A model generated the notes under the pieces. That model ran no database searches. It saw only the letters and a program-made list of their open reading frames with translations, and was not told the origin of the DNA. Below, in pieces: positions 2,898-19,827 of a stretch of 48,155 nt of DNA. The stretch is from an uncultured Coriobacteriia bacterium. GTDB lineage: Bacteria > Actinomycetota > Coriobacteriia > Coriobacteriales > QAMH01. Numbering within the stretch: the stretch's first letter is position 1; each line of letters opens with the position of its first letter. A program made the position numbers and the translations under genes. The stretch covers positions 1 to 48,155 of the forward strand of contig CABSKV010000002.1 of assembly GCA_902478425.1 (NCBI GenBank), read 5' to 3'.

Positions 2898-2974
<77 letters not shown>

Positions 2975-3039: not shown

Positions 3040-4305
3040 TTACGAATCGCTTATCGCGAGTCCGTGCGCGCGTCCCGTCTCCAGCTCCGTGACGATCGCA
3101 TCGGCACGCACGATGAAGCGCGATGCGGCCTGCACCGCCTGCGGCCCGCAAATCTCGACAAGCAGCTGCGCGTTGTTCCAGCAATCGCACAGCTCGCCGA
3201 GCTTGTCTTGCACGGCCTTGGCACGCACGTTGGTGCTGCCGGCATTATCGGGCAGGCAATCCGCGAACTCGCGCGTCACGTAACGCAGTGCCTTTGCCTG
3301 CTTGCGCACGTCATGCACGGCATCCTGATTGTCATAGTCGACACGTGCCATCTCCACCTCGTATGCCGTGCGCATCTCGTTCACGCGCTCGACGAGCTCT
3401 TCCGGCTCCAGTCCACGCTGCCAGACAGAGCGGCGCCACGGCAGCTCCCCGACGCGCTTGACGATGCGCCTGATCGCACGCTGCGTTGCCTCGGAGCCAA
3501 AGCGCTCGACGAACGCCTCGCGCTCCTCCGAGCATTCCGCACGGACCATGCCGGCCTCACTCGTCTGTGCATCGAGCGCCGCGCTCAGCATGTCGAGCTC
3601 GCGCAATCGCGACGTGGGGTCTTGCAGCTTCTTGAGCTCACGCATCTCCTGCTTGATGGTTCCGCGCTTGCAGTACGGTTTCAAGAACTCCAGAAGCGAG
3701 CGCGTCACGCGCAGCGAGATGCGATACTGATGCAGCGATTCGGGATCATCCGGGTTCTCGAGCAGTTGCGCCGCGCAGCGCTCTATGCGCGCCGCGGCCT
3801 CGGCAAGGCCGTCTTCCACGCTGGCGAGCACGTCCCAGTTGGAGTGCCGCGGCCCCTGCACGAACCATTCGGGATACGCATCCAGGCCCTTGAAGGCCAG
3901 CGCCGCCATCGCGCCCGGTCGCATGTCTTGTGCGACGCCGCTCAAGCTGGCGTAGAACTCCTCCATGAAGGGGTTGTGCCCCACGGCGATAACCGTACCC
4001 TGCTCGTTGTAGAGCTCGGCGACGAACTCGTCGTTGCTATCCGCGTACAGCGATTCCTTGACCTCGATACCCCCGATGCCGAGCGCACGAGCGATGACCT
4101 CAGCCGTCTGCAGCGCACGCAGCGCCGGGCTGCTCCAGATCTGCACCTCGCCCAGCTCCTCGTCGGACAGGAGCTGCAAGCTGATGGGATAGCGCGCCTC
4201 GAGCGCGTACCGGCCTGCCCGCGTGAGCTGGCGTTCGCGGTCGGTCAGCTCGCCGCTATGCTCCTGCGCCTTGCCGTGTCGGACGAGAACCAGTCTGGAA
4301 ACCAT
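3040..4305 (-). CDS. Histidine phosphatase (SixA-like) fused to a CHAD domain
   Basis: 421-aa ORF with an AAGGAGGGG RBS. The N-terminus carries LVLVRHGKA and VGHNPFM (RHG and HNP motifs of SixA-type phosphatases). The C-terminal ~250 aa carry CHAD-like helices ([17 protein letters not shown] and [18 protein letters not shown]). Confidence 0.8.
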
Positions 4306-4332
4306 GAAACCCCTCCTTGCAGCGACCGGCAG

Positions 4333-4734
4333 CTACAGCGCTTCCGGGTCTTCGCGTTTCAAGATGAAGTGGTAGATGATGAGCACGACGCCTTCGACCG
4401 CCGCGGCGATGAGCGCGATGATGATGACGATGTGCGCATAGAGGTGCATGCGCGCAAGCACAGCACCCACGATGACGAGAATGCCGCCGATGACGACGGC
4501 GAGCGGAATATAGCTCTTGCCCTTGCCGGGGTCACAGGAAACGGCATAGCCCGCCAGGGCGAAGACCACGGCCGACAACCCGGAGAACCAGGTGATCGAC
4601 GCGATGATCGTGCCGATTTCCTGCACCTGCATGAGGAGGCTGAACCCGCACGCCGAGCCACCGATGCCCGCGACGATCACCGAGATGATGCGCGTCAGGA
4701 TCTGCCTCTTCGAAAGTCGATACTCGTTACTCAT
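4333..4734 (-). CDS. Small integral membrane protein (about 4 TM), unknown function
   Basis: 133-aa ORF with four hydrophobic stretches and GC3-biased codons. It lies 18 nt downstream of the preceding gene. No clear RBS. Confidence 0.6.
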   Translation of the reverse strand: MSNEYRLSKRQILTRIISVIVAGIGGSACGFSLLMQVQEIGTIIASITWFSGLSAVVFALAGYAVSCDPGKGKSYIPLAVVIGGILVIVGAVLARMHLYAHIVIIIALIAAAVEGVVLIIYHFILKREDPEAL

Positions 4735-4752
4735 GCGGCATATGGTAGCAGC

Positions 4753-5982
4753 TTATAGCGTGAACTGCATGCCGTCTTCGGCCACGATGACGCGGCCATC
4801 GAATTGCTCCGCGTAGCGGTATATCTCGTCGATCTCGTTGACGCCCGGCTCGCACATGTGCGGCGCGAGGTGCGTGAGGTACACGCGTCCGGCATCGAGA
4901 ATGTCGATGCCCTCGTGCACGGTCTGGCGTACGTCGTGATGCGAGCGCGCCGTGCCGTGGTTCTCCCAGAAGGTCGAGTCCATGACGAGGTTGTCAACGC
5001 CCTTGAGGATCTCGATGACCTCGGGCTTGAGATCGCTCGTGTCGGGCGCGTAGAAGGTGCGCCTCCCCTGCGGAGTGGTGATGAGGTAGCCGAAGGTCCC
5101 CGGCGCATGCTTGAGCGGCAGCGCCTGTATCGTCAGCCCGTCGACCTCGCGCGTGTCGTACTCGTCCATCACGTCGAGCACGAAGCAATCGTCCATGTAG
5201 GAGTACTCCTTGAGCGTCTCGGCAATCGCGTATTCGCTCGCGTGAAAGGGCATCGTACCCATGAGGTATAAGCGGATGAAGTACTCGAACTCGCCCAGGC
5301 CGCCCATGTGGTCGTAGTGCGCGTGGGTGAGGAAAAAGTCGTTGATCACGCTGATGCCCTCGCGGTTGAGCTGATGGCGCACGTCGGGCGGGGCGTCGAT
5401 GACGGTGGTGCCGTGCCCGCGCAAGGCCACGCCCGTGCAGCCACGGCGCTTGGACGGGTCCTTGCGTGCGGCCTCGCAAGCCGGGCAGTGGCAGAAGAAC
5501 GCCGGCACTCCGCACCCCGAGCTCGTCCCCAAGAAGGTGAAGGTGCGCTCGATGGGAAGCGAGCGGAAGGGCAGCGGCCCACATGCGGCCTTGTCGGGGC
5601 ACGCGTCGCATTCGGCGCGGTACTCCGGCGCGATCGCATCCCAGCCGCAGCGCTCGAAGCCACAAGACAGGTAGAAGGGCTCGATCTCGCCACGCGCCAC
5701 GAGGCGCAGGTCAGGATGCAAGCGCAGCGCGTCGTTGAGCAGCGCACGACCCACGCCCTTGCCCTGCACGACGTCGAAGACGACGATGGGGCGCACGTTC
5801 CATGAGCCGTCACTACCCTGCTCCAGGCGGCAGGCGCCGTACATCGTGTTGTCCGGCGTCACGGCAACGCGCACGTTCTCGGAGCTCTGCAAGTCGCTGA
5901 AGCCCTCGACCGAAAACAGGTAGCGAATGAGGTCCATGTCCGCCTCGACGCAATCGCGGATGTGATATTCGGGTGCGATCAT
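4753..5982 (-). CDS. GNAT acetyltransferase fused to a PhnP-like metallo-beta-lactamase-fold phosphodiesterase
   Basis: I place the start at the Met of MIAPEYH (ATG 5982), which overlaps the upstream stop as ATGA. The first 60 codons of track ORF 4753..6162 overlap the flavin reductase gene. The N-terminus has GNAT motif A (VVQGKGVGRALL). The C-terminus has LGTSSGCGVPAFFCHCPACEAARKDP...LTHAHYDHMGG, that is a PhnP-type Cys cluster plus HxHxDH. Confidence 0.8.
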   Translation of the reverse strand: MIAPEYHIRDCVEADMDLIRYLFSVEGFSDLQSSENVRVAVTPDNTMYGACRLEQGSDGSWNVRPIVVFDVVQGKGVGRALLNDALRLHPDLRLVARGEIEPFYLSCGFERCGWDAIAPEYRAECDACPDKAACGPLPFRSLPIERTFTFLGTSSGCGVPAFFCHCPACEAARKDPSKRRGCTGVALRGHGTTVIDAPPDVRHQLNREGISVINDFFLTHAHYDHMGGLGEFEYFIRLYLMGTMPFHASEYAIAETLKEYSYMDDCFVLDVMDEYDTREVDGLTIQALPLKHAPGTFGYLITTPQGRRTFYAPDTSDLKPEVIEILKGVDNLVMDSTFWENHGTARSHHDVRQTVHEGIDILDAGRVYLTHLAPHMCEPGVNEIDEIYRYAEQFDGRVIVAEDGMQFTL

Positions 5983-6530
5983 GCGCTGAATCCTTCCTCG
6001 AAGTGCCCGAACTGCGCCCGCTGCCCCATGAGCAGCGCAGGAGTCGGCACGAGTTTGCCGTTGCCATCGATCTCGCCACGCGTCTCGGCGACGAGCGTGC
6101 GGCCGATGAAGAGCTCGTGGTCGCCATGCACCTGCGATTCCACCAGCTCGCACTCGATCCACGAAATAGCCTGCTCGATGCGCGCGGCATCCACCTGCGC
6201 GGCTTCGGCGGCCACGAGGCCGGCCTGTCCGATGCGGTCGTCGATGCCGGCTTTCTTGCCGCAGGTCATGGCAATCGCCACGGCCTTGTCATCGGCGCCC
6301 AGCACGTTGACGACGAAGCAGCCCGTCTCGCGCATGGCGCATGCGGTCTGTCCGCCGGGGCGAATCGCGACGGCGATGAGGCTCGGCTCATGCGAGATGG
6401 GCATGGCCCACGCGATGGTCGCGACCTTGTCCGCACCCGCCGCATCGCGTGCCGTGACAAGCGTCACGGTCGTGGGAATGAGCAGCGTGGCGATCTCGTT
6501 GCCGCTAAGCTCGCTGAGCGATCCTGTCAT
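5979..6530 (-). CDS. Flavin reductase-like (FMN-binding split-barrel) protein
   Basis: 183-aa ORF with a GAGGAG RBS. VTLVTARDAAGADKVATIAWAMPISHEPSLIAV is typical of the flavin_reduct family. Confidence 0.8.
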   Translation of the reverse strand: MTGSLSELSGNEIATLLIPTTVTLVTARDAAGADKVATIAWAMPISHEPSLIAVAIRPGGQTACAMRETGCFVVNVLGADDKAVAIAMTCGKKAGIDDRIGQAGLVAAEAAQVDAARIEQAISWIECELVESQVHGDHELFIGRTLVAETRGEIDGNGKLVPTPALLMGQRAQFGHFEEGFSA

Positions 6531-6552
6531 CGTGACTCCTCGCTCGTCGTGC

Positions 6553-7533
6553 CTACATGATGGGCGGGACGTAGATCTTCATGCGCGACTGCGGAATGGC
6601 GCGCTTGGCGAGCTCCTGGCAACCCTCGACGATGGTATCGAGACGGTCGGTCGGCACGCCCATGTACATCATGTCCTCGCCGATGTCGCTTGACGCGCGT
6701 CCGCCGTAGCAGCCAAACGAGATGTTCGGCTCGCCGTTCATGAGCGGCAGCAGCGTCGCCTCCACGCATTGCGCGTTGAAGCCCGACGCATGGAAGTCGT
6801 GACGATGCCCGTCGAAGTACGACATGCTCATCGACAGCCACATCATCTGCTCGGGCGTACCCGTGAACACGATGACCTCGGGATGGCGCGTGCACTTGCC
6901 GAGCGGTTGCACGAGTGTCGCGCGCTTGGATTTGGGTGGCAGCGTCGGGCGCTCGGCCACCATCTTGGCGGCAGCCTCGGCGTCCACGACCTTGTGGAAC
7001 AGCACGTAGATCTCGCCGGTGGCGAGCTTGTCGGGCACGCCGGTCATGCCGAAAATCGAGGTGCCGTCAGGGCACGCGTGGCAGTGCGGCGGCATGAGTA
7101 TGGATGCCCCGCGTCGCGCCGCGTTCATGCTCTGGCAATAACGTAGCTTCTCGGTGGGCATGGGCACGTCGGGCAGCGGCTCGTCGATGTCGATGAGGCC
7201 GACGGCAACTGGATGCCAGCGCAGATCGAGCGCCTTCATGATGGCCTTCTCGGCCTCGGCGTAATGGCGCTGCTCCTCGGCACTGATGGGCTCGGCGCGC
7301 TCCTCGTCGGCATACGGGTCGTATGCGGCGGCATCGGTCAACGACTTGATCACGATAGCGCGCTGTGGGCACTGGCCCGAGCACGTCGTGCAACCGACGC
7401 AAGCCTCCATGTCGACTGCCTTCGGCATGCCGTTCTCGTCCACCTCGAGGCAGTACTGCGGGCAAAACGCCACGCACAGCCCGCAGGCAACGCAGCGATC
7501 CGCATCGTGTATGAACTCGTAGTCAGCGCTCAT
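6553..7533 (-). CDS. 2x[4Fe-4S] ferredoxin domain fused to a DUF169-like domain
   Basis: 326-aa ORF with an AAGGAG RBS. The N-terminus has CVACGLCVAFCP and CVGCTTCSGQCP. The remainder (LRYCQSMNAARRG...FGCYGGRASS) resembles DUF169. Confidence 0.75.
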   Translation of the reverse strand: MSADYEFIHDADRCVACGLCVAFCPQYCLEVDENGMPKAVDMEACVGCTTCSGQCPQRAIVIKSLTDAAAYDPYADEERAEPISAEEQRHYAEAEKAIMKALDLRWHPVAVGLIDIDEPLPDVPMPTEKLRYCQSMNAARRGASILMPPHCHACPDGTSIFGMTGVPDKLATGEIYVLFHKVVDAEAAAKMVAERPTLPPKSKRATLVQPLGKCTRHPEVIVFTGTPEQMMWLSMSMSYFDGHRHDFHASGFNAQCVEATLLPLMNGEPNISFGCYGGRASSDIGEDMMYMGVPTDRLDTIVEGCQELAKRAIPQSRMKIYVPPIM

Positions 7534-7551
7534 GGGCTGCTCCTTGTCGCG

Positions 7552-8859
7552 TTAGGCGGTGGGGCCCGTACCCCACATCTCGTAGATGCGCTCACCGGCG
7601 GAATTCGTCATCTGGTAGCTGCAAAACGGAATCACGCGCCCGTCCTTCATCGCCACCGTCATCGAGCACTCCGCCATGCGCTCGGTCGTGGTCGTCATCG
7701 CGTCCATGTAGTTCATGATGATGACGCTGATGCCGCGAAACAGGTTGACGCCCTTCTTGTAGAGGATGTCGGGCAGTACCGAGCCCTGCGGCGAGGTCGG
7801 GTCGTAGTACTGCATGTACTCCTCGCTCGACAGGCCGCGCGTGGCCGGGATGTAGCCGCCGTTTTCATCCGGCATGAGGAAGGTGCCGGTATCGCACAGC
7901 GGATGCGAGCATCCAAGCGGCATGATGTCGGCGACCTTGATGCGGCCACCGGTCTGCTCCTCGAGCGCGTAGATAGTGTCGCCGGCCGTGTACGGCGCGT
8001 ACTCGCTCGGCTCGAAGCGCCCCGATGTGAACGCGGGCTGCAGCGCCACGCCGATCACCACGTCGGAGTTCTCCCACGCAAAGTCGATGACCTCGCCGAC
8101 GCGATCGTCGTTCACGCCCTTGACGATGGTCATGCACAGCACGACCTGGATGCCCACCTCGCGGCAGTTCTCGATGCACGCCATCTTGTCGGCGAGCATC
8201 GCGGCCTTGCCGCAAATCGCCTCGTAGGGCTCCTCGTCGATGCCGTCGAAGGACAGGTATATGCCCGTGATGCCCGCATCGACGAGCTCTTGCAGGTACT
8301 TCTTCGAGCGGCCAATGACGATGCCATTCGTGTTGATCTCGATGCCGGTGAAGCCGTGGCGACGCGCGCACATGACGATCTCGGGCAGGTCGCTGCGCAC
8401 CGTGGGCTCGCCGCCGGTGATCTGCAAACCCGTCTCGGGGCCGACCTTCTCGGCGAGCGTGGCAATGAGCCCCTCGATCTCGCCGAAGGTGATGCCGTCG
8501 CTCGGGAAATCCGCGCTCATGAAGCACACGGGGCACTTCGCGTTGCAGCGGCGCGTGACCTCAATCTCGACGAGCGTGCCGCGTCGCAGGTGGCGACGAC
8601 ACAGGCCGCAGCTCTTGGGGCATTCGTCGTCGATGGGATAATCGCGGCACTTGGGAACCGTCGGGGCGACGCGCATCGAGCGCAGCCATTCGTAATGCGC
8701 GGCATCCGGCCACACGTAGGTAACGGTCTCGCCGTGCTCCGGGCATGTGCGCGTCATCCAGACCTTGCCCTCGTCATCTGCGTAGATGTCGGCCTTCAGC
8801 TGCGTCAGGCAATGCGGACACAGCGCATGCGCCGTATGTAGCAGTTGCTTCTCAGTCAT
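7552..8859 (-). CDS. Radical SAM protein with an N-terminal zinc-ribbon/rubredoxin-like motif
   Basis: I place the start at MTEKQLL (ATG 8859, AAAAGGA RBS). The upstream 81 codons of the track ORF overlap the neighbouring gene. Motifs seen: CPHC...CPEHG, then the CNAKCPVC (CxxxCxxC) cluster motif, and ITGGEPT. Confidence 0.85.
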   Translation of the reverse strand: MTEKQLLHTAHALCPHCLTQLKADIYADDEGKVWMTRTCPEHGETVTYVWPDAAHYEWLRSMRVAPTVPKCRDYPIDDECPKSCGLCRRHLRRGTLVEIEVTRRCNAKCPVCFMSADFPSDGITFGEIEGLIATLAEKVGPETGLQITGGEPTVRSDLPEIVMCARRHGFTGIEINTNGIVIGRSKKYLQELVDAGITGIYLSFDGIDEEPYEAICGKAAMLADKMACIENCREVGIQVVLCMTIVKGVNDDRVGEVIDFAWENSDVVIGVALQPAFTSGRFEPSEYAPYTAGDTIYALEEQTGGRIKVADIMPLGCSHPLCDTGTFLMPDENGGYIPATRGLSSEEYMQYYDPTSPQGSVLPDILYKKGVNLFRGISVIIMNYMDAMTTTTERMAECSMTVAMKDGRVIPFCSYQMTNSAGERIYEMWGTGPTA

Positions 8860-8885
8860 ATGGGTCCTTTTCGGGTGAGACAGCT

Positions 8886-9809
8886 CTACCTGATGTGCCC
8901 CTCGGTTTCCTCCGGCTCGTGCGCGAAGGCGTCGGCGCCATCCTCCACGTCGTCGAGGTACTGGCGCGGGTCGTGGTTCTCGTTGGGTGCGGCATGTGGC
9001 TTGAGCCCCAGGAAGTCCGCCCACTGCAAGACGCGCTTGGGCACGTAGATGCCGGTCTGGTACTCGGACGCGGTGCGCAGCGCACGTGCGCACGACAGGC
9101 AATGCGCGAGGTCCTCCACCTCGTCAACATCGGCAACCGGCGCGAGGTAGGCGTTGGGGATGCCCTCCTCGACGAGCTTCTCGACATAGCCGTCGAGCGC
9201 GGGGCGACCGGTCATGTTGTAGTAGATGCCCTGGTGGTTGATGGGCGTGTCGAAGTTGAAGCCGACGAGCGAGGTGCCACACTCCTGGCACGGCGCCTGC
9301 ACGAAGCCGGGCGTGCCGAGCACCTCGGCAAAGTAGATGAGCCACTGGAACGCCTGCGTGACATGCGCACGCGGTAGCGTCGGAATGTCGGCGCCGATGG
9401 AGACGATGGCCTCGTAGCCCTGGTCGAAGATCTCCTTGAACGCCATGTCGAAGTGGTCGTCGAAGGTGGCGCCGCGGTCGTACATGTAGTGGATCTCGCG
9501 CGGCCACTGTCCGATCTCCTCAATCGTCTCCTTCATGAGGGCGACGTTCTTCTCGGGCGTGGTCGAGATGAAGAGGTCGTAGCTGCGCTCGGGCGCACCC
9601 GGGTCTGCCTTGCGCTCCTCGCGGTTGAGCGCCTCGAGGTCATCCATGCACCACATCGCGAGCTCGGTCACGTCCCACAGGCTGCGCTTGAAGAACTGGG
9701 CAGCCTGCTCCTGGGTGAAGCCGCCACCGCGCTCGATGGTGAGGCGCGTCTTGACCAGGCCGGGAATCGGCGGCTTGGAGAAGATGAGGATCGCGTACTT
9801 CTTCTGCAT
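8886..9809 (-). CDS. DUF2064-like (MobA/CofC-fold) putative nucleotidyl/glycosyl transferase
   Basis: I place the start at MQKKYAILIFSKPPIPGLVKTRL (ATG 9809). The RBS AAGAAGGAG lies inside the end of the upstream gene. The N-terminal motif matches the DUF2064 signature (aKaP.pG.vKTRL). Confidence 0.7.
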   Translation of the reverse strand: MQKKYAILIFSKPPIPGLVKTRLTIERGGGFTQEQAAQFFKRSLWDVTELAMWCMDDLEALNREERKADPGAPERSYDLFISTTPEKNVALMKETIEEIGQWPREIHYMYDRGATFDDHFDMAFKEIFDQGYEAIVSIGADIPTLPRAHVTQAFQWLIYFAEVLGTPGFVQAPCQECGTSLVGFNFDTPINHQGIYYNMTGRPALDGYVEKLVEEGIPNAYLAPVADVDEVEDLAHCLSCARALRTASEYQTGIYVPKRVLQWADFLGLKPHAAPNENHDPRQYLDDVEDGADAFAHEPEETEGHIR

Positions 9810-9814
9810 GGGTG

Positions 9815-12034
9815 CTACTCCTTCTTTCTGATGCGGCATGGAATGCCGTTGTAAATCCACGTCCCGATAAGCGGCTCGCGCGCGCCCTCGACGGTGCCAC
9901 GCGTGAGCAGGTTGATGTTCGACTCAAAGCATTTCCCGAAGTCAGGTTCGTCTTCGACTGTCTCAGGGTACCACCATCCGTATTCAGCCGATGCGACATC
10001 GTCAAGCATATTCGTGATATGCACGTATTGGAGTACCTCAACGTCCGGTGTGTCCTGGCGCGAGATGAGGCAGGCATCGCCCTCGGCGAGCCCCAGGCGC
10101 TCGGCCGTCGCAGCCGACATCTCGACGGTCGGCTGCGGGTGACGTGCGCGCATGGAGGGCACCTCGAAGTACGAGGAAGCCCAATACGGCTGCTTGCGCG
10201 CGCCCGTGATGAGCGTGACGCAATCGTCTTCGTGGCATACGTCCTCGTGCACACCGGCAACGGGCGTGAACTGCGCGACCAACCCGGCACCGCGTCGCTG
10301 CAAGAACGGGATGGCGAGCTCGACCTTGCCGCTTTCGGTCGCAAAACCGCGCGGCTCGCCGGTCGCCTCGTCGATCTCGAGATGCTTGAAGTAGTGCGCT
10401 CCCCCACCGCATATGCCGGTGATGGTGAAGTCCTCCCAGCTCATGCCCGTGGGCGCGATGGTGCGCGCAAGCTCTTCGGTGAGGTCGCGGGCAGGCCACA
10501 GTGTTTCGTCGCAGCCCATGCGCAACGCCAGCTCGCGCAAGATCTCGTAATCTTCGCGACGCTCGAACTGCGGCTCGACGGCAGCCGGTCCGCCGTAGCA
10601 GAAGTCGGAGACGCCTCCCATCGCCTGGAAGCAGGGATGCTCGACGGCGGCAGCCGCAGGCAAGACGTAATCGGCCATGAGGGCCGTGGGCGTCATGACG
10701 AATTCGAGCACGACGACGAGGTCCATCGCCTCGAGCGCCTTGGTGACGAGCTGCGTATCGGCGTAGGTGACGAGCGGATTGGCGCCATCGACGATGAGCG
10801 CGCTCACGCGATAGGGCTTGCCGGTGATGGCGGCCTCCCACACGCGCTGCGGCAGCGCAGAGGTGAGATAGCGCATGGGCAGATGGCGTCCCAGCTTGCC
10901 GGTACGCTCGTCGGCGAGCGCCCAGCCCTTGTAACTCTGTATTCCGCAGTCGGGCTCGTTGAGGCCATGGGCACGAGCCTCGGCAGACAGCAGCGCGCTA
11001 TCCTCGAGCTCGAGCTCGCTCATGAAACTCGGCGCCTCGTTGAGCACGCAGCCGCCGGGCACGTCGACGTTTCCGGCGATGGCGCGCAGCGCGGCGATGA
11101 CGCGGTGCAGTGGCGCGGTGTTGGGGCCGATCTGGTCCACGCCACGTCCCGAAAGCAGGCCGGCCGGCTTGCTCGTCGCGTACATGCGGGCAGCCGCACG
11201 TATGTCATCGACGCTCACCTGCGTGATGCGGGCAGCCTCGTCGAGCGTGCGCTCGAAGGCAGCGGCCTTGAACTCGTCAAAGCCATAACACCAGTCCTCG
11301 ACGAACTCGTGGTCGTAGAGGTCTTCCTCGATGATGACACGCGCGAGCGCGTAGGCGAGGACAAGGTCCGTACCGGGGAAAGGCGCAAGCCACAGCGTCG
11401 CCTTGGCCGCCGTCATCGACAGGCGTGTGTCGATGACGATGAGCTTGCCGCCGTTGCGCGCGTATTCGGCGATGTTGCGCCAGAACAGCGAGTTGTCCGA
11501 CTCAGCCGGATTGGTGCCCCATAGCATGAGGCATTCGGTGAGGTCGGGCCTGAAGTCGCACTCGACCGACCAGCCGTAAGTCATCGTGTCCATCCATATG
11601 CGCGGGTTCCAGCATATCGGGCCGATGCCCATGTTGTTGGGACTGCCGATGAAGCTCATGAAGCGATGCAGCGGCCAGTACACCGCATGCGGCCCGCCGA
11701 TGGCGCTTGCCACCGTCCAGGGGCCGTAGGCGTCAATGAGCAGGCGCAGGCGCGACGCGATATCGTCGAGCGCCTCGTCCCAGCTCACGCGGATGAAGCC
11801 ACCGCCACCACGCGCACCCAGGCGCTTGAGCGGGTAGTTGACGCGCGTGTCCTCGTCATAGAGCTTCTCGAGGTTGAGCTGCCAGCGCGGGCACCGGGCG
11901 GCCACACTCACGTCGTACGGATAGCGCGTCGCGTCCGGCGTGAAGTCGACGACGCGCCCGTCTTCGAGCGTCGCGTCGAACGCGCACAGATAGCCGCAGT
12001 AATGGCAGTTGGTTTTACGAGTCTCGGTAGTCAT
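9815..12034 (-). CDS. Molybdopterin (bis-MGD) oxidoreductase, soluble, no signal peptide
   Basis: 739-aa ORF. The N-terminus has the CHYCGYLC...C [4Fe-4S] motif and no RRxFLK twin-arginine motif. Molybdopterin and molydop-binding regions are present (LMLWGTNPAESD, MTPTALMADYVLP). It is a paralog of the gene at 15206..18091. Confidence 0.9.
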   Translation of the reverse strand: MTTETRKTNCHYCGYLCAFDATLEDGRVVDFTPDATRYPYDVSVAARCPRWQLNLEKLYDEDTRVNYPLKRLGARGGGGFIRVSWDEALDDIASRLRLLIDAYGPWTVASAIGGPHAVYWPLHRFMSFIGSPNNMGIGPICWNPRIWMDTMTYGWSVECDFRPDLTECLMLWGTNPAESDNSLFWRNIAEYARNGGKLIVIDTRLSMTAAKATLWLAPFPGTDLVLAYALARVIIEEDLYDHEFVEDWCYGFDEFKAAAFERTLDEAARITQVSVDDIRAAARMYATSKPAGLLSGRGVDQIGPNTAPLHRVIAALRAIAGNVDVPGGCVLNEAPSFMSELELEDSALLSAEARAHGLNEPDCGIQSYKGWALADERTGKLGRHLPMRYLTSALPQRVWEAAITGKPYRVSALIVDGANPLVTYADTQLVTKALEAMDLVVVLEFVMTPTALMADYVLPAAAAVEHPCFQAMGGVSDFCYGGPAAVEPQFERREDYEILRELALRMGCDETLWPARDLTEELARTIAPTGMSWEDFTITGICGGGAHYFKHLEIDEATGEPRGFATESGKVELAIPFLQRRGAGLVAQFTPVAGVHEDVCHEDDCVTLITGARKQPYWASSYFEVPSMRARHPQPTVEMSAATAERLGLAEGDACLISRQDTPDVEVLQYVHITNMLDDVASAEYGWWYPETVEDEPDFGKCFESNINLLTRGTVEGAREPLIGTWIYNGIPCRIRKKE

Positions 12035-12042
12035 GACCCCAG

Positions 12043-12048
12043 ATTGTA
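12043..12048 (-). promoter_or_regulatory. Possible -10 box (TACAAT) 8 nt upstream of the ATG, implying a leaderless or near-leaderless mRNA
   Basis: The minus strand reads ...gcagTACAATctggggtcATG. There is no convincing -35 element and no properly spaced RBS. Confidence 0.3.
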
Positions 12049-12160
12049 CTGCATGTATCGGGCAAACACGCGCACTCTCCGGTTACAACACGGCGGCGGG
12101 GGAATAAGACAACGCCAACCCTGCCATTTCGAGCAGAGCGAAGATCTCTCTAGTCGGCGG

Positions 12161-12221
12161 GATGAGACGAAAGTGGCCGGGGCGGTGAGACAAAAGTCGC
12201 CGGGGCCACTTTCGTCTCATC
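12161..12221 (-). repeat. Three-part repeat/hairpin directly after the stop codon of the CCG protein gene
   Basis: An 18-bp perfect inverted repeat pairs GATGAGACGAAAGTGGCC (12161..12178) with GGCCACTTTCGTCTCATC (12204..12221). Between the arms lies a direct near-copy, GGTGAGACAAAAGTCGCC (12184..12201). No U-tract follows. Confidence 0.6.
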
Positions 12222-12226
12222 ACCCA

Positions 12227-13381
12227 TTAGTCGACGAGCGTGAGCTCCTCGCTCTCGGAAAGCTCCGCATATGCCGGGTCGGCAAAGAGCGCGTCAACGC
12301 TCGCGTACACCTGCCCCCAATCGACGGGGCAATCGAATACCTGCTCGAGGTAATGTTGCACGGGCGTGCTTCCCACGCCGCGCTGCAGCGAGTTGACACA
12401 CGAGAAGCAGGTCGACAGCACCCGGTCCGCGTCAACTCCGTCGATCTCGGCAAGGCGCATGTTGCGACGATACGCGCAGTAATCCGGCGCGTATACGCTC
12501 ACCATGCCACCGCCGCCGCAGCACAGGCTGTCACGCCCTTCGTGCGGCATGCTCTCAAGCGTGGCGTTTCCGAACAGCTTTCGCGCCGCATCGCCAAAGA
12601 AGCCCGAAGAGCGGTCGTAGCATGCATCGTGAAACGTGATCGTCTCTTCGCTCTCCGACGTCATGCCATGCTCGACAAGCAAATCGGGCAGTCGCACGAT
12701 CTCGATACCCATGCCCTCGACGAGCTGGGGCAACAGATGGTCGCAATGCGGACAAGTCACGACCAGGCGATCGATTTCCCTCTCGCGCAGAAAAGCCTGC
12801 ACGCGCTCGCGATAAGCGTCGTATTCGGCGTAGAAGCCAACATCGTAGAAAGTCGCTCCGCAGCAGATGAGCAGCGTGTAGGCGGCAATGCCCTCATCAC
12901 GCAGCCACTGCGAGACCTTGACGGTAAGTTCAGGTGCATATGCGTACAGCGCGCAACCCGGGAAAAACGCCGTGCGATCGGCATCGCCACCCAGGTTCGC
13001 CTCGCCCTGTATATAAGTGACATTGGTGATGTCCCCCGTATCATGGGCACGCAATGCCGAGAAGACGTTGTACTTGAGGTCCGTCCTGAACTTGCGATAC
13101 AAGGGCCTCAGCTCGGGCTTCTTCTCGAGCAGCAATGCCCTAAGCGGCTTGTTGGCACGAGAGGCGACCAGATCGACCGGGCAGTTAATCGTGCAGCGAT
13201 TGCACAGCGCGCAGGTGAAGGGTGCATACTCCCAGGTCTCCTCGCCGTTGAGGATGGACTCGCACAGTTCTCCGAGGTTGGGCTCACCGTTCGAGAAGTT
13301 GCCGCAATCGGTCTGCGCGCACAGGCCGCAGCGTATGCAGCTGTCGGAAAAGTCCTGCACGTCCTCCAGGGGATGATGCAT
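12227..13381 (-). CDS. HdrD/GlpC/GlcF-like iron-sulfur protein (2x[4Fe-4S] plus two CCG domains)
   Basis: 384-aa ORF containing CIRCGLCAQTDC, CALCNRCTINCP, and CCG-type motifs (FFPGCAL, CCGATF, FHDACY, CCGGGG). Confidence 0.85.
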   Translation of the reverse strand: MHHPLEDVQDFSDSCIRCGLCAQTDCGNFSNGEPNLGELCESILNGEETWEYAPFTCALCNRCTINCPVDLVASRANKPLRALLLEKKPELRPLYRKFRTDLKYNVFSALRAHDTGDITNVTYIQGEANLGGDADRTAFFPGCALYAYAPELTVKVSQWLRDEGIAAYTLLICCGATFYDVGFYAEYDAYRERVQAFLREREIDRLVVTCPHCDHLLPQLVEGMGIEIVRLPDLLVEHGMTSESEETITFHDACYDRSSGFFGDAARKLFGNATLESMPHEGRDSLCCGGGGMVSVYAPDYCAYRRNMRLAEIDGVDADRVLSTCFSCVNSLQRGVGSTPVQHYLEQVFDCPVDWGQVYASVDALFADPAYAELSESEELTLVD

Positions 13382-13454: not shown

Positions 13455-13494
13455 AGCAAAAAGAAACCCCCGCTCCCATCGAGGGAACGGGGGT
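13455..13494 (-). terminator. Intrinsic terminator after the NrfD-like gene
   Basis: On the minus strand, ACCCCCGTTCCC-tcgat-GGGAGCGGGGGT forms a 12-bp stem with one mismatch, followed by TTCTTTTTGC. Confidence 0.7.
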
Positions 13495-13537
13495 CTCGCC
13501 AAACCTTGCGGTTCATGCATGCCAGGTGGCGCAAATC

Positions 13538-14629
13538 CTACTGAGCGCCGGTCATGGCAGGGTTGGGGCCGGAAGTCTGGTAGACCTCGTCCGGACCGTC
13601 AGCAGGTGCCTCGTCGGCAACCTCGCCGGCAGGCGTAACCCACGTCCAGTACTCCTTGCCAGCCTCCCAGTAATCCATGAAGTCCTGGTGGCTCTGGGGC
13701 AGGCGGGTGTAGTACTTGAGTTCGGCCGGGGTGACGCGACGCTGGTAGCTCCAGATGATCATGAAGCGCAGCAGGCAGCCACCCATGAGGGCGATGATTT
13801 GCGAGGCGTAGCCACCCACGCTCGTGATGTTGAGCAGGAACGGGATGACAAGACCGCAGCAAACCATGAGGCCCCAGAAGTAGCCAGCCCACTCACCGCA
13901 AACCCAGCGCTTGGCATGGGCCTTGGCGGTCTCGTTGGAGGCGCAGAACTGCAGCATCACGTAGAGCAGCAGCACGACAAGCTCGAGCGCGATGAGGATC
14001 GCGTCGGCGACATGCAGGATGTGACGCAGCTCCTCGGTGAGCAGCGCGGCCAGCGGCGTGGAGAGGTTGACCTGCAGCCACTCGGCCGGGAAGGGCCACA
14101 CGCCGATGCACATGGACAGCAGGGCCGCGCCGGTGGAGCAGCCGGACACCATGAAGAGCACGGGCAGAACCGGGGTGTTCCAGAACGGACGGGACTTCAT
14201 GCTGGAGAGCAGGACGCCCGTGTAGATCGTGACGCACAGGCCAAAGATGCCGGCGATGCCAAGCAGGACCTGAGCGCAGCCCTCATAGGGAATGAAGGGT
14301 AGGAACGTGAGCCAGGAGAGCTCCCAGAAAATGAAAAGCACGCCCGCGATCATCGAGATGGAGAGGAACACGGCACCCCATTTGATGACCGAGGTCCTCG
14401 TCACGAAGGCACGGTAGAAAATCCACGGCTGGCCAAGCTCGAAGACGAGCAGGCCGGTGCCAATGCCCAGGATGAGAAAGGCGATGAAGACGCCCCACAC
14501 GAGGGCACCGCTCGTCAGAGCGGATGGCGCGATGATCAATCCGACAACGGCGGCGGACGCCATCATGCCGCCACCAAGGCCGCCCAGGAAGAGGTAGAGG
14601 GCAATCGGCCAAATCCAGAACTGCTTCAC
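13538..14629 (-). CDS. NrfD/PsrC/DmsC-like polytopic membrane anchor subunit
   Basis: 363-aa ORF with about 8-9 TM helices and an N-terminus WPIALYLFLGGLGGG typical of the NrfD family. The GTG start overlaps the upstream stop as GTGA. Confidence 0.9.
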   Translation of the reverse strand: MKQFWIWPIALYLFLGGLGGGMMASAAVVGLIIAPSALTSGALVWGVFIAFLILGIGTGLLVFELGQPWIFYRAFVTRTSVIKWGAVFLSISMIAGVLFIFWELSWLTFLPFIPYEGCAQVLLGIAGIFGLCVTIYTGVLLSSMKSRPFWNTPVLPVLFMVSGCSTGAALLSMCIGVWPFPAEWLQVNLSTPLAALLTEELRHILHVADAILIALELVVLLLYVMLQFCASNETAKAHAKRWVCGEWAGYFWGLMVCCGLVIPFLLNITSVGGYASQIIALMGGCLLRFMIIWSYQRRVTPAELKYYTRLPQSHQDFMDYWEAGKEYWTWVTPAGEVADEAPADGPDEVYQTSGPNPAMTGAQ

Positions 14630-15189
14630 TGTGCCGTACCTCCTAAGTCGGGAATGTAGTAGATCATGGGCTCAGTACCAACCTCAGGATAGACTTGCTC
14701 GGTATAGTACGAGTTGACGAGCTTCGAGACCTCGCTGTTGGGGTCGTCGAGATCGCCGAAGGTACGGGCCTTCTGATGGCACGTCATGACGCAGAAGGGC
14801 TGTTCGCCCTCGCGCACGCGGTCCTTGCAGAAGGTGCACTTGCGGATGTAGCCCTCGTGCTCGTTCATATCGCGAGCGCCGTAGGGGCACGCATTCGCGC
14901 AGACCTTGCATCCCATGCACTGGGAAGGCTCAACCCACACGATGCCGTCGTCGTCCTGGCGGGAAGCGCCAGTCGGGCAGGCGGGCACGCAGGCGGGCTT
15001 GTCGCAGTGCATGCAGATGAGCGGCGTGAAGGTCATGTGAACATGGGGCCACACGCCCTCTGCTCCGTTGGAAACAACGGGATTGTAGATGATGTCAATG
15101 GGCAGCTCGTTCCAGGTGCGGCATGCGATGGTGCATGACGAGCAACCAATGCAACGACGCTGGTCCATAACCATTGCGTAACGGGTCAT
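14626..15189 (-). CDS. 4x[4Fe-4S] ferredoxin subunit (DmsB/PsrB-like)
   Basis: 187-aa ORF with a GGAGG RBS. Cluster motifs: CIGCSSCTIAC, CMHCDKPACVPACP, CMGCKVCANACP, CTFC. No signal peptide. Confidence 0.9.
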   Translation of the reverse strand: MTRYAMVMDQRRCIGCSSCTIACRTWNELPIDIIYNPVVSNGAEGVWPHVHMTFTPLICMHCDKPACVPACPTGASRQDDDGIVWVEPSQCMGCKVCANACPYGARDMNEHEGYIRKCTFCKDRVREGEQPFCVMTCHQKARTFGDLDDPNSEVSKLVNSYYTEQVYPEVGTEPMIYYIPDLGGTAQ

Positions 15190-18091: not shown

Positions 18092-18411
18092 TCTGCCTCC
18101 TCCTTCATTCTCTCTTGCCACATGTTTGCATTACCTGCTTTCCGCAGACCATGCAGTCATGCGGAACACCTCCTGCGAAGATGTTGCCATCCTCGCACGT
18201 CAACGCTATCTGTCTGCATTTTCACGCCTGTTCGATGAGTGGACATGGCAATGCCGACGTCTAACGTCTAACTTCCGTATTAAATCACGGGATGGAGGTT
18301 ATGTGAAGCTATGAAAACGGGGATTTCGCCTGCGTGCGCAATCTGCACCGCTTTCGGCAAAACCCCCGTTTCGTTCGGGATGTGAGCGCTTCACGCGCAG
18401 AGAGTCAAGTA

Positions 18412-19236
18412 CTAGAGCGCCTCGATCTTGTCAACGATCGGGTCGAGCCAGTCGCCCTTGATGTCCTCGACGTTGCCCGAGTCGACCTCGGCCGAAATCT
18501 TCGGGTCCATCGGCACGCAGGCCCAGGCGTCGATGCCCTTGCTCTTGGCGATGGCCTCGACCTCGGACTTGCCGAAAATCTCGTGACGCGAGCCGCAGTC
18601 CGGGCACTCGTAGTACGACATGTTCTCGACCAGGCCCAGCACCGGCACGTTCATGTGCTCGGTCATGCGGATGGCCTTCTCGACGATCATGTTGACGAGC
18701 ACCTGCGGAGCCGTCGCGATGACGACACCCTTGAGCGGGAACTGCTGGAACACCGTCATGGGGATGTCGCCCGTTCCCGGCGGCATGTCGACGATGAGAT
18801 AGTCGAGCTCGCCCCAGTTGATGTCGCTGTAGAACTGCGTGAGGATGCCGTTGAGCACCGGGCCACGCCACAGGAAGGGCGTCGCCTCGTCGGCGGTGAG
18901 CATGTTGGTCGAGACGACCTTGATGCCCGTCTTGGTCTCGGCCGGCCTCAGCATGCCGTCCTCGTCGACCGCGGGCGGCTCGTGAATGCCGAAGGAGCGC
19001 GGAATGGACGGGCCGGTGATGTCGCCATCGAGAATGCCGACCTCGTGCCCGCGACGGCGCAGCTCGCAGGCGAGCATCGCGGCCGTGAGCGATTTGCCGA
19101 CGCCACCCTTGCCGCTGGCCACGGCGATGACGTTCTTGATCTTCGTGCCTTCGTGAAGTTGCAGCGTCTGCGGGGCGGTGCGGTCAGCGCACGCGCTATC
19201 GCCACATGCAGAGCAGTTCGAGTTGCACTCAGCCAT
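18412..19236 (-). CDS. mrp: Mrp/NBP35/ApbC-family iron-sulfur cluster carrier ATPase
   Basis: I place the start at MAECNSNCSACGDSAC (ATG 19236, GGGAGA RBS). The protein has the deviant Walker A GKGGVGKS and the CPDCG motif. Confidence 0.85.
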   Translation of the reverse strand: MAECNSNCSACGDSACADRTAPQTLQLHEGTKIKNVIAVASGKGGVGKSLTAAMLACELRRRGHEVGILDGDITGPSIPRSFGIHEPPAVDEDGMLRPAETKTGIKVVSTNMLTADEATPFLWRGPVLNGILTQFYSDINWGELDYLIVDMPPGTGDIPMTVFQQFPLKGVVIATAPQVLVNMIVEKAIRMTEHMNVPVLGLVENMSYYECPDCGSRHEIFGKSEVEAIAKSKGIDAWACVPMDPKISAEVDSGNVEDIKGDWLDPIVDKIEAL

Positions 19237-19295
19237 GTCGAATCTCCCTAAACCGTCCCGGTCGTTCCCGGGACCTCTCTGAAAAAGACGTGCAT

Positions 19296-19325
19296 CATGG
19301 TACTGCATGGTCTGGGCGCATGTCA
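19296..19325 (-). promoter_or_regulatory. Possible mrp promoter (-35 CTGACA, -10 TACCAT)
   Basis: The minus strand reads aaCTGACAt-n17-TACCATgatg, about 60 nt upstream of ATG 19236. Confidence 0.3.
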
Positions 19326-19403: not shown

Positions 19404-19478
19404 TGGTGGGCGTTACTGGGATCGAACCAGTGGCCTTTTCCGTGTCAGGGAAACGCGCTCCCGCTGCGCCAAACGCCC
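19404..19478 (-). tRNA. tRNA-Val (anticodon GAC)
   Basis: The reverse complement gives acceptor GGGCGTT/AACGCCC, anticodon stem TTTCC/GGAAA, loop CTGACAC, T-loop GGTTCGATCC, and CCA. Confidence 0.9.
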
Positions 19479-19488
19479 GTGGCAAAGT

Positions 19489-19516
19489 AGTCTAACAGAA
19501 TGACGCTTCATCGCAA
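19489..19516 (-). promoter_or_regulatory. Candidate tRNA-Val promoter (-35 TTGCGA, 16-nt spacer, -10 TAGACT)
   Basis: Read on the minus strand. The -10 box ends 10 nt before the mature tRNA 5' end. Confidence 0.4.
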
Positions 19517-19538
19517 GCACGATTTTTGCAAGTTTCTC

Positions 19539-19567
19539 TTGCGCTTTGTCCTAAGTTTCCCTAGAAT
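19539..19567 (+). promoter_or_regulatory. Candidate tRNA-Gly/Cys promoter (-35 TTGCGC, 17-nt spacer, -10 TAGAAT)
   Basis: The -10 box ends 12 nt before the tRNA-Gly 5' end. It is divergent from the tRNA-Val promoter. Confidence 0.5.
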
Positions 19568-19579
19568 ACCGCTCTGCGC

Positions 19580-19655
19580 GCGGAAGTGGCTCAGTTGGTA
19601 GAGCACAACCTTGCCAAGGTTGGGGTCGCGGGTTCGAGCCCCGTCTTCCGCTCCA
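19580..19655 (+). tRNA. tRNA-Gly (anticodon GCC)
   Basis: Acceptor GCGGAAG/CTTCCGC, anticodon stem CAACC/GGTTG, loop TTGCCAA, T-loop GGTTCGAGCC, and CCA. Confidence 0.95.
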
Positions 19656-19664
19656 TGCTAAGTC

Positions 19665-19692
19665 AAGAGCCGGCTTTCCAGTCGGCTCTTTT
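19665..19692 (+). terminator. Hairpin plus short T-run between tRNA-Gly and tRNA-Cys (weak terminator or processing element)
   Basis: AAGAGCCG-n10-CGGCTCTT followed by TT. Confidence 0.35.
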
Positions 19693-19710
19693 ACTCAAAG
19701 CACGTGGCAT

Positions 19711-19784
19711 GGCGACGTGGCCAAGCGGTAAGGCAGAGGCCTGCAAAGCCTTTATCACCGGTTCGATTCCGGTCGTCGCCTCCA
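19711..19784 (+). tRNA. tRNA-Cys (anticodon GCA)
   Basis: Acceptor GGCGACG/CGTCGCC, anticodon loop CTGCAAA, T-loop GGTTCGATTCC, and CCA. Confidence 0.95.
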
Positions 19785-19793
19785 GTAAACGAA

Positions 19794-19826
19794 AAGGGCC
19801 GGGGTAATCCCCGGCCCTTGTTTTTA
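19794..19826. terminator. Bidirectional intrinsic terminator between tRNA-Cys (+) and the CAT-anticodon tRNA (-)
   Basis: AAGGGCCGGGG-taat-CCCCGGCCCTT forms an 11-bp perfect stem. GTTTTTATT follows on the plus strand and TTTTCGTTT on the minus strand. Confidence 0.7.
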
Positions 19827-19827
19827 T

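Follow-up and report, generated by a model that had tools for sequence, protein, structure and literature searches.

A conserved gene neighbourhood of Coriobacteriia that combines a TrsS-like radical-SAM enzyme, DUF2064 and ferredoxin-DUF169 proteins and two molybdoenzymes of the acetylene-hydratase clade

What do eight adjacent genes make or modify when a molybdenum enzyme is followed by a DUF2064 protein, a radical-SAM (S-adenosylmethionine) enzyme, a ferredoxin-DUF169 fusion and four further proteins, and do these genes belong together? The string lies on the minus strand, between 12034 and 3040, of contig CABSKV010000002.1 from an uncultured Coriobacteriia bacterium, of which a stretch of 48,155 nt (hereafter the window) was analysed. 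We found that a larger chromosomal neighbourhood, conserved across Eggerthellaceae-type Coriobacteriia, has this string as its downstream part. What we observed concerns which genes are present and in what order, how far they are conserved, the folds and metal sites of the proteins, the cytoplasmic location of the molybdoenzymes and the families to which the proteins are related. The eight genes are the following:

9815..12034, minus strand: bis-molybdopterin guanine dinucleotide (bis-MGD) molybdoenzyme, 739 aa (Pfam Molybdopterin, Molydop_binding and a weak Fe4S4 domain)
8886..9809, minus strand: DUF2064 protein, 307 aa (PF09837)
7552..8859, minus strand: radical-SAM enzyme, 435 aa (Pfam Zn_ribbon_HMPTM and Radical_SAM)
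6553..7533, minus strand: ferredoxin-DUF169 fusion, 326 aa (Pfam Fer4 and DUF169)
5979..6530, minus strand: flavin reductase-like protein, 183 aa (Pfam Flavin_Reduct)
4753..5982, minus strand: fusion of a GNAT and a metallo-beta-lactamase (MBL), 409 aa (Pfam GNAT and Lactamase_B_2)
4333..4734, minus strand: hydrophobic protein, 133 aa (no Pfam domain and no NCBIfam family match)
3040..4305, minus strand: fusion of a SixA-like phosphatase and a CHAD domain, 421 aa (Pfam His_Phos_1 and CHAD)

An earlier note on this DNA had counted nine genes; there are eight, and its own list holds seven gaps and eight products. The gaps it gave (5, 26, 18, 22, -4 as an ATGA overlap, 18 and 27 nt) were identical when recomputed, and a Pfam profile search of each protein bore out all the domains it had named. 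None of the gaps exceeds 27 nt, which leaves no room for an internal terminator; a consensus scan for terminators stayed at chance level (7 found vs 8.2 expected). Two weak terminator-like matches occur in the string, at 7061-7075 and 4542-4556, both within coding sequence. Co-directional genes, short or overlapping junctions and no internal terminator make up the operon-type layout that had been proposed.

The neighbourhood extends beyond this string, as four further genes of the same strand, which the earlier note had left outside the set, lie directly upstream:

15206..18121, minus strand: large bis-MGD enzyme with a length of 961-971 aa, a member of the acetylene-hydratase/catechol-dehydroxylase clade (Pfam families and best solved match)
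14626..15189, minus strand: DmsB/NrfC/ArrB-like four-cluster iron-sulfur subunit (NCBIfam matches)
13538..14629, minus strand: NrfD-type integral membrane subunit, quinone-interacting (Pfam NrfD, similarity to TIGR03148), its gene overlapping that of the iron-sulfur subunit by 4 nt
12227..13381, minus strand: CCG/HdrD-like iron-sulfur protein (Pfam CCG; two ferredoxin-type Cys motifs and two CCG domains)

The description of the 739-aa molybdoenzyme as partner-less must therefore be given up, because immediately upstream of it, in the same orientation, stands the CCG/HdrD-like gene, which in other genera abuts or overlaps the orthologue of the molybdoenzyme gene.

The conservation of this arrangement was assessed in 80 loci, retrieved from one-genome-per-species contigs via an alignment of radical-SAM homologues. 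Thirteen window proteins were located in these loci by tblastn, and presence was counted only among loci long enough. Loci were called distant when the identity of their radical-SAM enzyme was below 75% (n=55) and close otherwise (n=25). For synteny, coding open reading frames (ORFs) were picked by a GC3-GC2 filter and cross-checked by tblastn; the filter breaks down in lower-GC metagenome-assembled genomes (MAGs), and for L029 and L067 the ORF listing was used. Presence was as follows:

DUF2064: distant 53/53, close 22/22
Ferredoxin-DUF169: distant 42/43, close 15/18
GNAT: distant 37/38 (as a separate gene), close 15/18 (fused to the MBL)
739-aa molybdoenzyme: distant 36/41, close 19/19
CCG protein: distant 31/37, close 13/13
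Iron-sulfur subunit: distant 31/35, close 9/11
NrfD subunit: distant 30/35, close 9/11
Large molybdoenzyme: distant 26/31, close 7/8
Flavin reductase: distant 14/34 (always on the opposite strand), close 15/18
133-aa membrane protein: distant 0/29, close 10/13
SixA-CHAD: distant 0/27, close 5/12

The neighbourhood recurs in 80/80 loci and in many genera of Coriobacteriia, which supports the tightly coupled, syntenic set that had been proposed. Represented among the distant loci are Adlercreutzia, Ellagibacter, Gordonibacter, Raoultibacter, Parvibacter, Enterorhabdus and Eggerthella, besides many further Coriobacteriales, and synteny is kept over a deep divergence, with radical-SAM enzymes that are 51-57% identical. 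The invariant core is formed by DUF2064, the radical-SAM enzyme, ferredoxin-DUF169 and GNAT, and in about 85-90% of loci it comes after the CCG protein and the molybdoenzyme of 739 aa. As to the extent of the set, the coupling of the eight genes stands but its boundaries do not, the conserved system reaching upstream to the CCG protein and the DmsABC-like set. As to membership, the core genes belong to the system, while the 133-aa membrane protein and SixA-CHAD, each absent from all distant loci, are lineage-specific additions that lie outside it. The fusion of GNAT to the MBL and the co-directional flavin reductase, both of which the earlier note had counted as parts of the system, are likewise specific to this lineage.

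In Gordonibacter, nine co-directional genes with overlapping stop and start codons follow one another in the order large enzyme, iron-sulfur subunit, NrfD, CCG, molybdoenzyme, DUF2064, radical-SAM enzyme, ferredoxin-DUF169 and GNAT. In distant loci the GNAT gene stands 3' of DUF169, and the MBL gene is divergent and upstream of the gene for the large molybdoenzyme. Both the MBL gene and that of the flavin reductase shift in position and strand yet stay close, which fits selection for linkage. The flanks vary, with glmS, acpS and padR in most genera (glmS and acpS in Adlercreutzia, Ellagibacter and Gordonibacter) and tRNA, major facilitator superfamily (MFS) and amino-acid permease genes in the window lineage.

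Part of the neighbourhood also occurs by itself. Several Coriobacteriales MAGs, many of whose isolate names are bin-style, carry the cassette of DUF2064, radical-SAM enzyme and ferredoxin-DUF169, with or without GNAT, but neither a molybdoenzyme gene nor a CCG gene beside it. In the lineage of L024 and L026 ferredoxin-DUF169 is replaced by a fusion of an aldo/keto reductase with a two-cluster ferredoxin (L026 11426-13244), after which comes a GNAT of unrelated type; the pattern suggests a non-orthologous displacement and an oxidoreductase role for ferredoxin-DUF169. Two loci carry duplications: L049, from a MAG, has two tandem DUF2064 genes before the radical-SAM gene (7935-9897), with a MalT/LuxR-type regulator ahead of them, and L081 has a second radical-SAM copy downstream. 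Finally, 'cleanbin' assemblies labelled Akkermansia muciniphila, Agathobacter rectalis, Bacteroidaceae, Ruthenibacterium and Oscillibacter (L018 and L022-L025) carry the cluster, with a radical-SAM identity of 76-82%; these contigs are most likely binning contaminants and not evidence of the cluster in those taxa.

For the radical-SAM enzyme a structural template exists. Its best sequence match in the PDB is GDGT-MAS (MJ0619; 7TOL and 7TOM), and its AlphaFold2 model (pLDDT 81, pTM 0.86) was matched by Foldseek to 7tom with a TM of 0.81 and 32% identity, the next match being MoaA at about 0.45. Four metal sites have been described in GDGT-MAS (PMC9433317). For all four, the corresponding residues do not vary among the Coriobacteriia proteins or among true TrsS members: a rubredoxin-like site (C14X2C17X21C39X2H42), an N-terminal auxiliary cluster (C80/C84/C87/H90), the radical-SAM cluster (C105X3C109X2C112, i.e. 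CX3CX2C) and a C-terminal cluster (C232/C322/C398/C413). The four-domain fold and all the metal sites are common to Tes/GDGT-MAS and the window enzyme, but the former has 526 aa and the latter 435, with a shortfall of about 90 residues in the C-terminal region. This region, the C-terminal domain of which holds two hydrophobic lipid pockets and the labile Met ligand in GDGT-MAS, aligns in pieces only, and the stretch around Met439 is unaligned. The gene context differs too: the window enzyme stands among redox and molybdenum enzymes, not lipid genes. To our knowledge, no archaeal-type or membrane-spanning lipid has been reported in its bacterial host.

The two best NCBIfam matches of the window enzyme are TrsS (NF045646), at 332.7 bits for a cut-off of 490, and Tes (NF045702), at 311.5 bits for a cut-off of 450. 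On these scores membership of Tes is rejected, and the enzyme falls short of TrsS in the strict sense. TrsS is often a selenoprotein (PMC13188914); the window enzyme has no in-frame stop codon readable as selenocysteine. GDGT-MAS has a narrow hydrophobic tunnel that was judged incompatible with a pterin substrate, and an earlier assignment of the protein as a pterin methylase was not reproduced (PMC9433317).

An exhaustive search of 1.8 billion cluster representatives placed the Coriobacteriia radical-SAM proteins in one cluster. Their next relatives are TrsS-family proteins of Clostridia, Thermodesulfobacteriota, Dehalococcoidia and several archaeal groups, the nearest non-Coriobacteriia relatives passing the TrsS cut-off; the family is said to have been named by Haft and Tolstoy in 2025. 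We examined the gene contexts of four bacterial TrsS proteins and one archaeal one. In Clostridium tyrobutyricum and one other genome TrsS lies inside the NCBIfam 'DVU_1551-1557' set, beside a Mop-type molybdopterin aldehyde oxidoreductase. This set comprises an XdhC-type maturation factor, a MocA-like NTP transferase-HD fusion, a MoeA-like protein, a CobC-like histidine phosphatase, a methyltransferase, an AMP-dependent ligase, a C_GCAxxG_C_C protein and a flavoprotein/dicluster/CCG protein of 757 aa (NF045663). A Dehalococcoidia contig and the context of a TrsS-methyltransferase fusion hold no molybdoenzyme, though both retain a methyltransferase together with a CCG or dicluster protein. The archaeal context (L086) shows only methyltransferases nearby and no CCG protein. 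ArsM-like methyltransferases stand beside TrsS, and several proteins are themselves fusions of TrsS to a SAM-dependent methyltransferase (P0277, P0330 and P0359; neighbourhoods L085 and L087).

A CCG or dicluster protein adjoins TrsS in 4/4 bacterial contexts; the window CCG protein has NF045663, the dicluster protein of TrsS neighbourhoods, as its best NCBIfam match, and it is 25% identical over 327 aa (E 5e-22) to a CCG protein whose gene overlaps a TrsS-methyltransferase gene. The window protein is likely to be the redox partner of the radical-SAM enzyme, of the molybdoenzyme, or of both. The TrsS context beside the aldehyde oxidoreductase also means that two unrelated families of pterin-dependent molybdoenzymes, that of xanthine dehydrogenase there and that of dimethyl sulfoxide (DMSO) reductase in the window, share a radical-SAM enzyme with the same metal-ligand cysteines, a homologous CCG partner, a nucleotidyltransferase-fold protein and a His_Phos_1 phosphatase. 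The association of TrsS-type radical-SAM enzymes with pterin molybdoenzymes has arisen in at least two unrelated enzyme families. The window cluster is without the AMP-dependent ligase, the C_GCAxxG_C_C protein, the DVU_1557 protein and XdhC, and it adds DUF2064, ferredoxin-DUF169 and GNAT, none of which occurs in the TrsS contexts examined. A methyltransferase, present in five TrsS contexts, is found neither adjacent nor fused in the window and Gordonibacter clusters. The TrsS/DVU_155x neighbourhood, the nearest system that has been defined, is itself a computational family set and appears uncharacterised.

The two molybdoenzymes have the same closest solved structure, the acetylene hydratase 2e7z, which they match over their full length (260 bits for the 739-aa enzyme and 404 bits for the large one). 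For the former, this agrees with the acetylene-hydratase-like size and architecture proposed in the earlier note, as does its soluble bis-MGD type with an N-terminal 4Fe-4S motif (CX2CX3C at residues 10-17). That it has no signal for TAT (twin-arginine translocation) was confirmed as well, since the twin-arginine motif is missing from the window protein and was found in 0/41 orthologues; for the large enzyme, an RR motif before the cluster motif was found in 0/28 orthologues. With no twin-arginine motif in either family, both active sites should face the cytoplasm; the metal of the 739-aa enzyme may be molybdenum or tungsten. Conserved motifs are CH[YF]CGY[LC]C and GIG[QP]ICWNPRIW in the 41 orthologues of the 739-aa enzyme, and CYFCH[AQ]NC and NALLCWIPTFM in the 28 of the large enzyme.

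The 739-aa enzyme shares with acetylene hydratase the bis-MGD architecture, the N-terminal [4Fe-4S] cluster, a length of about 730 aa and the lack of an export signal, and the Cys metal ligand (Cys141 of acetylene hydratase) is aligned and conserved. The catalytic Asp13, a neighbour of the second cluster cysteine, is by contrast absent from both window enzymes, its position being taken by Gly in the 739-aa enzyme (CHYCGYLC) and its orthologues and by His in the large enzyme. Asp13 is reportedly essential in acetylene hydratase, as judged by mutagenesis, and on account of its replacement neither protein is regarded as a true acetylene hydratase. Formate dehydrogenase was also rejected: the top NCBIfam match, Fdh-alpha, reached only 239 bits for a cut-off of 666, and the residue after the ligand Cys is Trp, where formate dehydrogenases have His. 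No specific NCBIfam equivalog cut-off was reached by either molybdoenzyme.

Cytoplasm-facing iron-sulfur molybdoenzymes anchored by NrfD/PsrC-type subunits exist, such as the sulfite dehydrogenase SoeABC, which likewise combines a catalytic subunit without TAT signal, a four-cluster subunit and an NrfD-type subunit. By this analogy the large enzyme and its iron-sulfur and NrfD subunits resemble a cytoplasm-facing, quinone-coupled complex. SoeABC nevertheless belongs to a different clade from the large enzyme, which is acetylene-hydratase-like and has an extra, repeat-containing C-terminal extension. This extension of about 200 aa (15206 to about 15850) consists of two repeats of about 90 aa with recurring GW(L/M)(I/V)D...TG(Y/W)xY and Y(D/T)(F/M)(S/E) motifs, gives only a faint OCRE match in Pfam, and is kept in Ellagibacter, Enterorhabdus and Gordonibacter.

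Acetylene hydratase is also the nearest characterised relative of the catechol dehydroxylases of Eggerthella and Gordonibacter (PMC7028382), and by their sequences both molybdoenzymes are in the same acetylene-hydratase clade as these enzymes. The [4Fe-4S] motif and the Cys metal ligand of the clade that holds Dadh, Hcdh, Cadh, Dodh and Cldh are likewise kept in the window enzymes. The three-gene layout of Dadh, Hcdh and Cadh (catalytic subunit, 4Fe-4S subunit and membrane anchor) is that of the large enzyme only. The E. lenta dehydroxylases carry a TAT signal, whereas neither window enzyme does, and dehydroxylases vary between species in sequence and genomic context (PMC7028382), whereas the window cluster is conserved across many genera. 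The Dodh-type enzymes of Gordonibacter are without TAT signal and adjoin MFS transporters (PMC7028382).

Among the remaining members, the DUF2064 protein passes its Pfam cut-off (51 bits for 25.8). Its only NCBIfam match, the arsenosugar-type transferase family TIGR04282, is rejected at 60.4 bits for a cut-off of 134. It has a GT-A or CofC-MobA-like fold, a weak match to PDB 3cgx (nucleotide-diphospho-sugar-transferase fold) and an N-terminal K-T-R-L motif, which we take to recall that of CofC-type nucleotidyltransferases. Enzymes that handle nucleotide-linked cofactors include CofC (F420), MobA/MocA (molybdenum cofactor) and CobU/CobC (cobamide). The DUF2064 protein shares the fold and the K-T-R-L motif with these pathways, but no family cut-off is reached and their other genes are absent.

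The ferredoxin-DUF169 fusion, with its 2x[4Fe-4S] ferredoxin, is the most conserved member (about 70% identity between the window lineage and Gordonibacter) and has 517 homologues at E 1e-10 or better; PDB sequence matches cover the ferredoxin part only. The flavin reductase, in contrast, is a loosely linked satellite, co-directional with the other genes only in this lineage. In the GNAT-MBL fusion, GNAT covers residues 1 to about 140 and is followed by a Cys-rich tail. The tail bears an E-C-D-x-C-x(4-5)-C-G-P-x-P motif (window about 5560-5630; L066 12359-12796; L053 12425-13075), whose three cysteines are kept whether or not GNAT is fused to the MBL; they suggest a metal or cluster site, which would be unusual for GNATs. 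The MBL half is of PhnP/PqqB type, with a Cys-rich N-terminus and the general Lactamase_B_2 fold; membership of PhnP itself is rejected (100 bits for a cut-off of 272). Adjacent GNAT and PhnP/PqqB-type MBL genes are also found as PhnO and PhnP in the C-P lyase operon, but the matches are below cut-off and the other genes of that operon are absent. The SixA-like phosphatase scored 39 bits for a cut-off of 74.5; its LVRHGKA (RHG) and VGHNP (GHNP) motifs are present.

In the window, two features lie between the upstream genes and the string:

13463..13497, minus strand: hairpin resembling an intrinsic terminator (stem of 15 bp, then TTTTTG), between the NrfD and CCG genes
12161..12221, minus strand: near-perfect inverted repeat with 24-nt arms and no T-run, immediately past the CCG stop codon

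The second lies in the 192-nt spacer between the CCG and molybdoenzyme genes, whose predicted folding is much stronger than that of shuffled sequence (z = -5.5). A terminator or transcript boundary without a U-run, a processing site and an operator are all conceivable roles for it. Since these two hairpins set the string apart from the genes upstream, transcription could plausibly begin near 12040-12160, and in this window the string may form its own transcript; at its downstream end it is bounded by a tRNA gene.

What, then, could this set of proteins do? The interpretation that we favour, tentatively and short of calling it probable, is a cytoplasmic radical/redox pathway that builds or tailors a non-protein, cofactor- or lipid-like small molecule working with both molybdoenzymes. 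We infer all the chemistry of such a pathway, the identity of its product and the sharing of its product or substrate, itself non-protein, with the molybdoenzymes. The DUF2064 protein would use a nucleotide to activate a phosphorylated intermediate. The radical-SAM enzyme would abstract H from an unactivated carbon, and its auxiliary cluster would form a C-C or C-S bond, as in GDGT-MAS, with the CCG protein as its redox partner. Ferredoxin-DUF169 would carry out a low-potential reduction, possibly of a carbonyl, GNAT would acylate an amine, and the MBL phosphodiesterase would remove the phosphodiester handle. The molybdoenzymes would perform hydration or (de)hydroxylation, the large one exchanging electrons with menaquinone via its DmsB-like and NrfD-like subunits.

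We rank such a pathway first for three reasons: the TrsS module and the Coriobacteriia cassette both occur without adjacent molybdoenzymes, the structural template GDGT-MAS has a hydrophobic substrate tunnel, and a generic carbonyl reductase can replace DUF169. The existence of TrsS modules both with and without molybdoenzymes argues in particular for an autonomous small-molecule module that was recruited to molybdoenzymes. Several points weigh against it. DUF169 and DUF2064 are uncharacterised domains, and the AlphaFold2 model of ferredoxin-DUF169 (pLDDT 53, from a shallow alignment of 25 sequences at least 69% identical) is unusable. The 5-nt spacing between the molybdoenzyme and DUF2064 genes fits direct maturation of the enzyme or its cofactor equally well, as does the TrsS neighbourhood with its XdhC, MocA-like and MoeA-like genes. 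No transporter and no pathway-specific regulator that might indicate a substrate is found in the cluster. All loci come from one class, and common descent instead of selection could account for some of the synteny. Moreover, the two hairpins suggest three transcription units in the window, not one.

A narrower version of this idea, which we hold to be doubtful, is that the cassette and the CCG protein make an unknown organic cofactor required by the cytoplasmic acetylene-hydratase-clade molybdoenzymes of Eggerthellaceae, the TrsS systems of Clostridia, Desulfovibrio and archaea forming the wider family. Such a cofactor could be a pterin dinucleotide carrying a modification, a thiol-type carrier or one that transfers electrons. 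If this were true, it would be the second biological use of cluster-mediated C(sp3) coupling or insertion, so far seen only in archaeal tetraether lipid synthesis.

The best of the other explanations, which was the first of the two readings in the earlier note, is that the products of the accessory genes alter the molybdopterin or tungstopterin cofactor, or act on the adjacent acetylene-hydratase-clade enzyme(s) by post-translational modification or by loading, with the radical-SAM enzyme acting on the pterin or the apoprotein and DUF2064 as a MobA/MocA-like nucleotidyltransferase. We consider this rather unlikely, yet a serious rival, because the coupling of molybdoenzyme and DUF2064 genes, 5 nt apart, is tight and because the TrsS set has real cofactor-maturation genes, the XdhC-type factor and the MocA-like and MoeA-like proteins next to an aldehyde oxidoreductase of the xanthine-dehydrogenase family. 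The overlap of the CCG and molybdoenzyme genes in Gordonibacter, the rank of MoaA as second-best structural and family match of the radical-SAM enzyme, the lack of any substrate-type regulator or transporter in the cluster, and the kinds of protein shared by the two unrelated molybdoenzyme families fit it too. Against this stand the TrsS modules without any nearby molybdoenzyme, the Coriobacteriales MAGs in which the cassette has neither molybdoenzyme nor CCG gene beside it, the pterin-incompatible tunnel of GDGT-MAS (PMC9433317), and other molybdoenzyme genes in the retrieved loci (L039, L069 and L092) that are without such neighbours.

It is improbable that the locus is an ordinary one, in which both molybdoenzymes are catechol-dehydroxylase-like reductases for a diet or host compound and the other genes are just neighbours in a stable region. 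Both enzymes are indeed nearest to acetylene hydratase, as the dehydroxylases of Eggerthella and Gordonibacter are (PMC7028382); an MFS gene follows the string, as MFS genes adjoin the Dodh-type enzymes that share the lack of a TAT signal (PMC7028382); and the restriction of all loci to one bacterial class would agree with a merely stable region. However, the order and adjacency of the cassette are kept while the surrounding genes change completely, and stop and start codons overlap between molybdoenzyme and accessory genes. The cluster is moreover near-universal, apparently in a single copy per locus set, and the independent pairing of TrsS with CCG proteins ties the molybdoenzyme-coupled CCG gene to the radical-SAM enzyme.

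Least probable of all, and a widened form of the second reading in the earlier note, is the reductive conversion of an organophosphorus, phospho-sugar or organo-metalloid compound (a phosphonate, or one containing arsenic or selenium) by a PhnO/PhnP-like GNAT-MBL, an arsenosugar-type transferase (DUF2064) and the radical-SAM enzyme, which is suggested by the GNAT-MBL pair mirroring PhnO and PhnP (PhnP being the best NCBIfam match of the MBL half), by TIGR04282 ('arsenosugar biosynthesis glycosyltransferase') as sole NCBIfam match of DUF2064, by the frequent selenoprotein nature of TrsS (PMC13188914) and its ArsM-like neighbours, by DUF169 near HgcA-like genes in Nitrospina (10.1101/648329) and by DUF169 among the predicted partners of a selenium-related gene in Slackia (PMC5322559), but is opposed by matches far under their cut-offs (PhnP 100 vs 272, TIGR04282 60 vs 134, SixA 39 vs 74.5), by the lack in the cluster of a methyltransferase, a C-P lyase core and any ars, sel or phn transporter or regulator, by the missing selenocysteine codon in the window enzyme, and by the MBL gene and the phosphatase being the least tightly linked members.

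As for novelty, the statement that the combination belongs to no characterised pathway is borne out in that all specific NCBIfam equivalogs (TrsS, Tes, TIGR04282, PhnP, SixA, Fdh-alpha and others) stay under their curated cut-offs. A literature search found no description of the Coriobacteriia cluster. The domains are all known, and it is their conserved grouping that is apparently undescribed. Many transformations of drugs, dietary compounds and hormones in the human gut are the work of Eggerthellaceae (Eggerthella, Gordonibacter, Adlercreutzia and relatives), and much of this chemistry is performed by molybdoenzymes of the acetylene-hydratase/catechol-dehydroxylase clade. A near-universal, uncharacterised cassette beside two cytoplasmic members of this clade is a candidate for missing biochemistry, be it a new small molecule or an enzyme requirement. 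It is also a bacterial and genetically approachable entry to the TrsS branch of tetraether-synthase-like radical-SAM enzymes, to DUF169 and to DUF2064; in scope it offers experiment a well-supported target and does not amount to a solved function.

The surroundings of the neighbourhood in the window include one feature close to the end of the string:

2898-2974, minus strand: tRNA-Pro(GGG) gene, which starts 65 nt past the SixA-CHAD stop codon and has a hairpin 3' of it

The MFS gene mentioned above lies downstream of the string. Four tRNA genes (Val, Gly, Cys and Met) occur at 19404-19903, beyond the other end of the neighbourhood, so that in this lineage the whole 16-kb block is flanked on both sides by tRNA genes. 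Despite these flanks, a mobile island was rejected: base composition is uniform along the window (GC 63%), the rest of the window is made up of housekeeping genes (rpoD, dnaG, ribF, nrnA, infB, nusA, leuS and purL), and the cluster is present family-wide. Directly upstream of the large molybdoenzyme gene stands a gene for an Mrp/NUBPL-type iron-sulfur-cluster carrier ATPase (18412-19308, minus strand), a position that is not kept in other genera. The identical locus is present in human-gut metagenome assemblies of uncultured Coriobacteriia bacterium.

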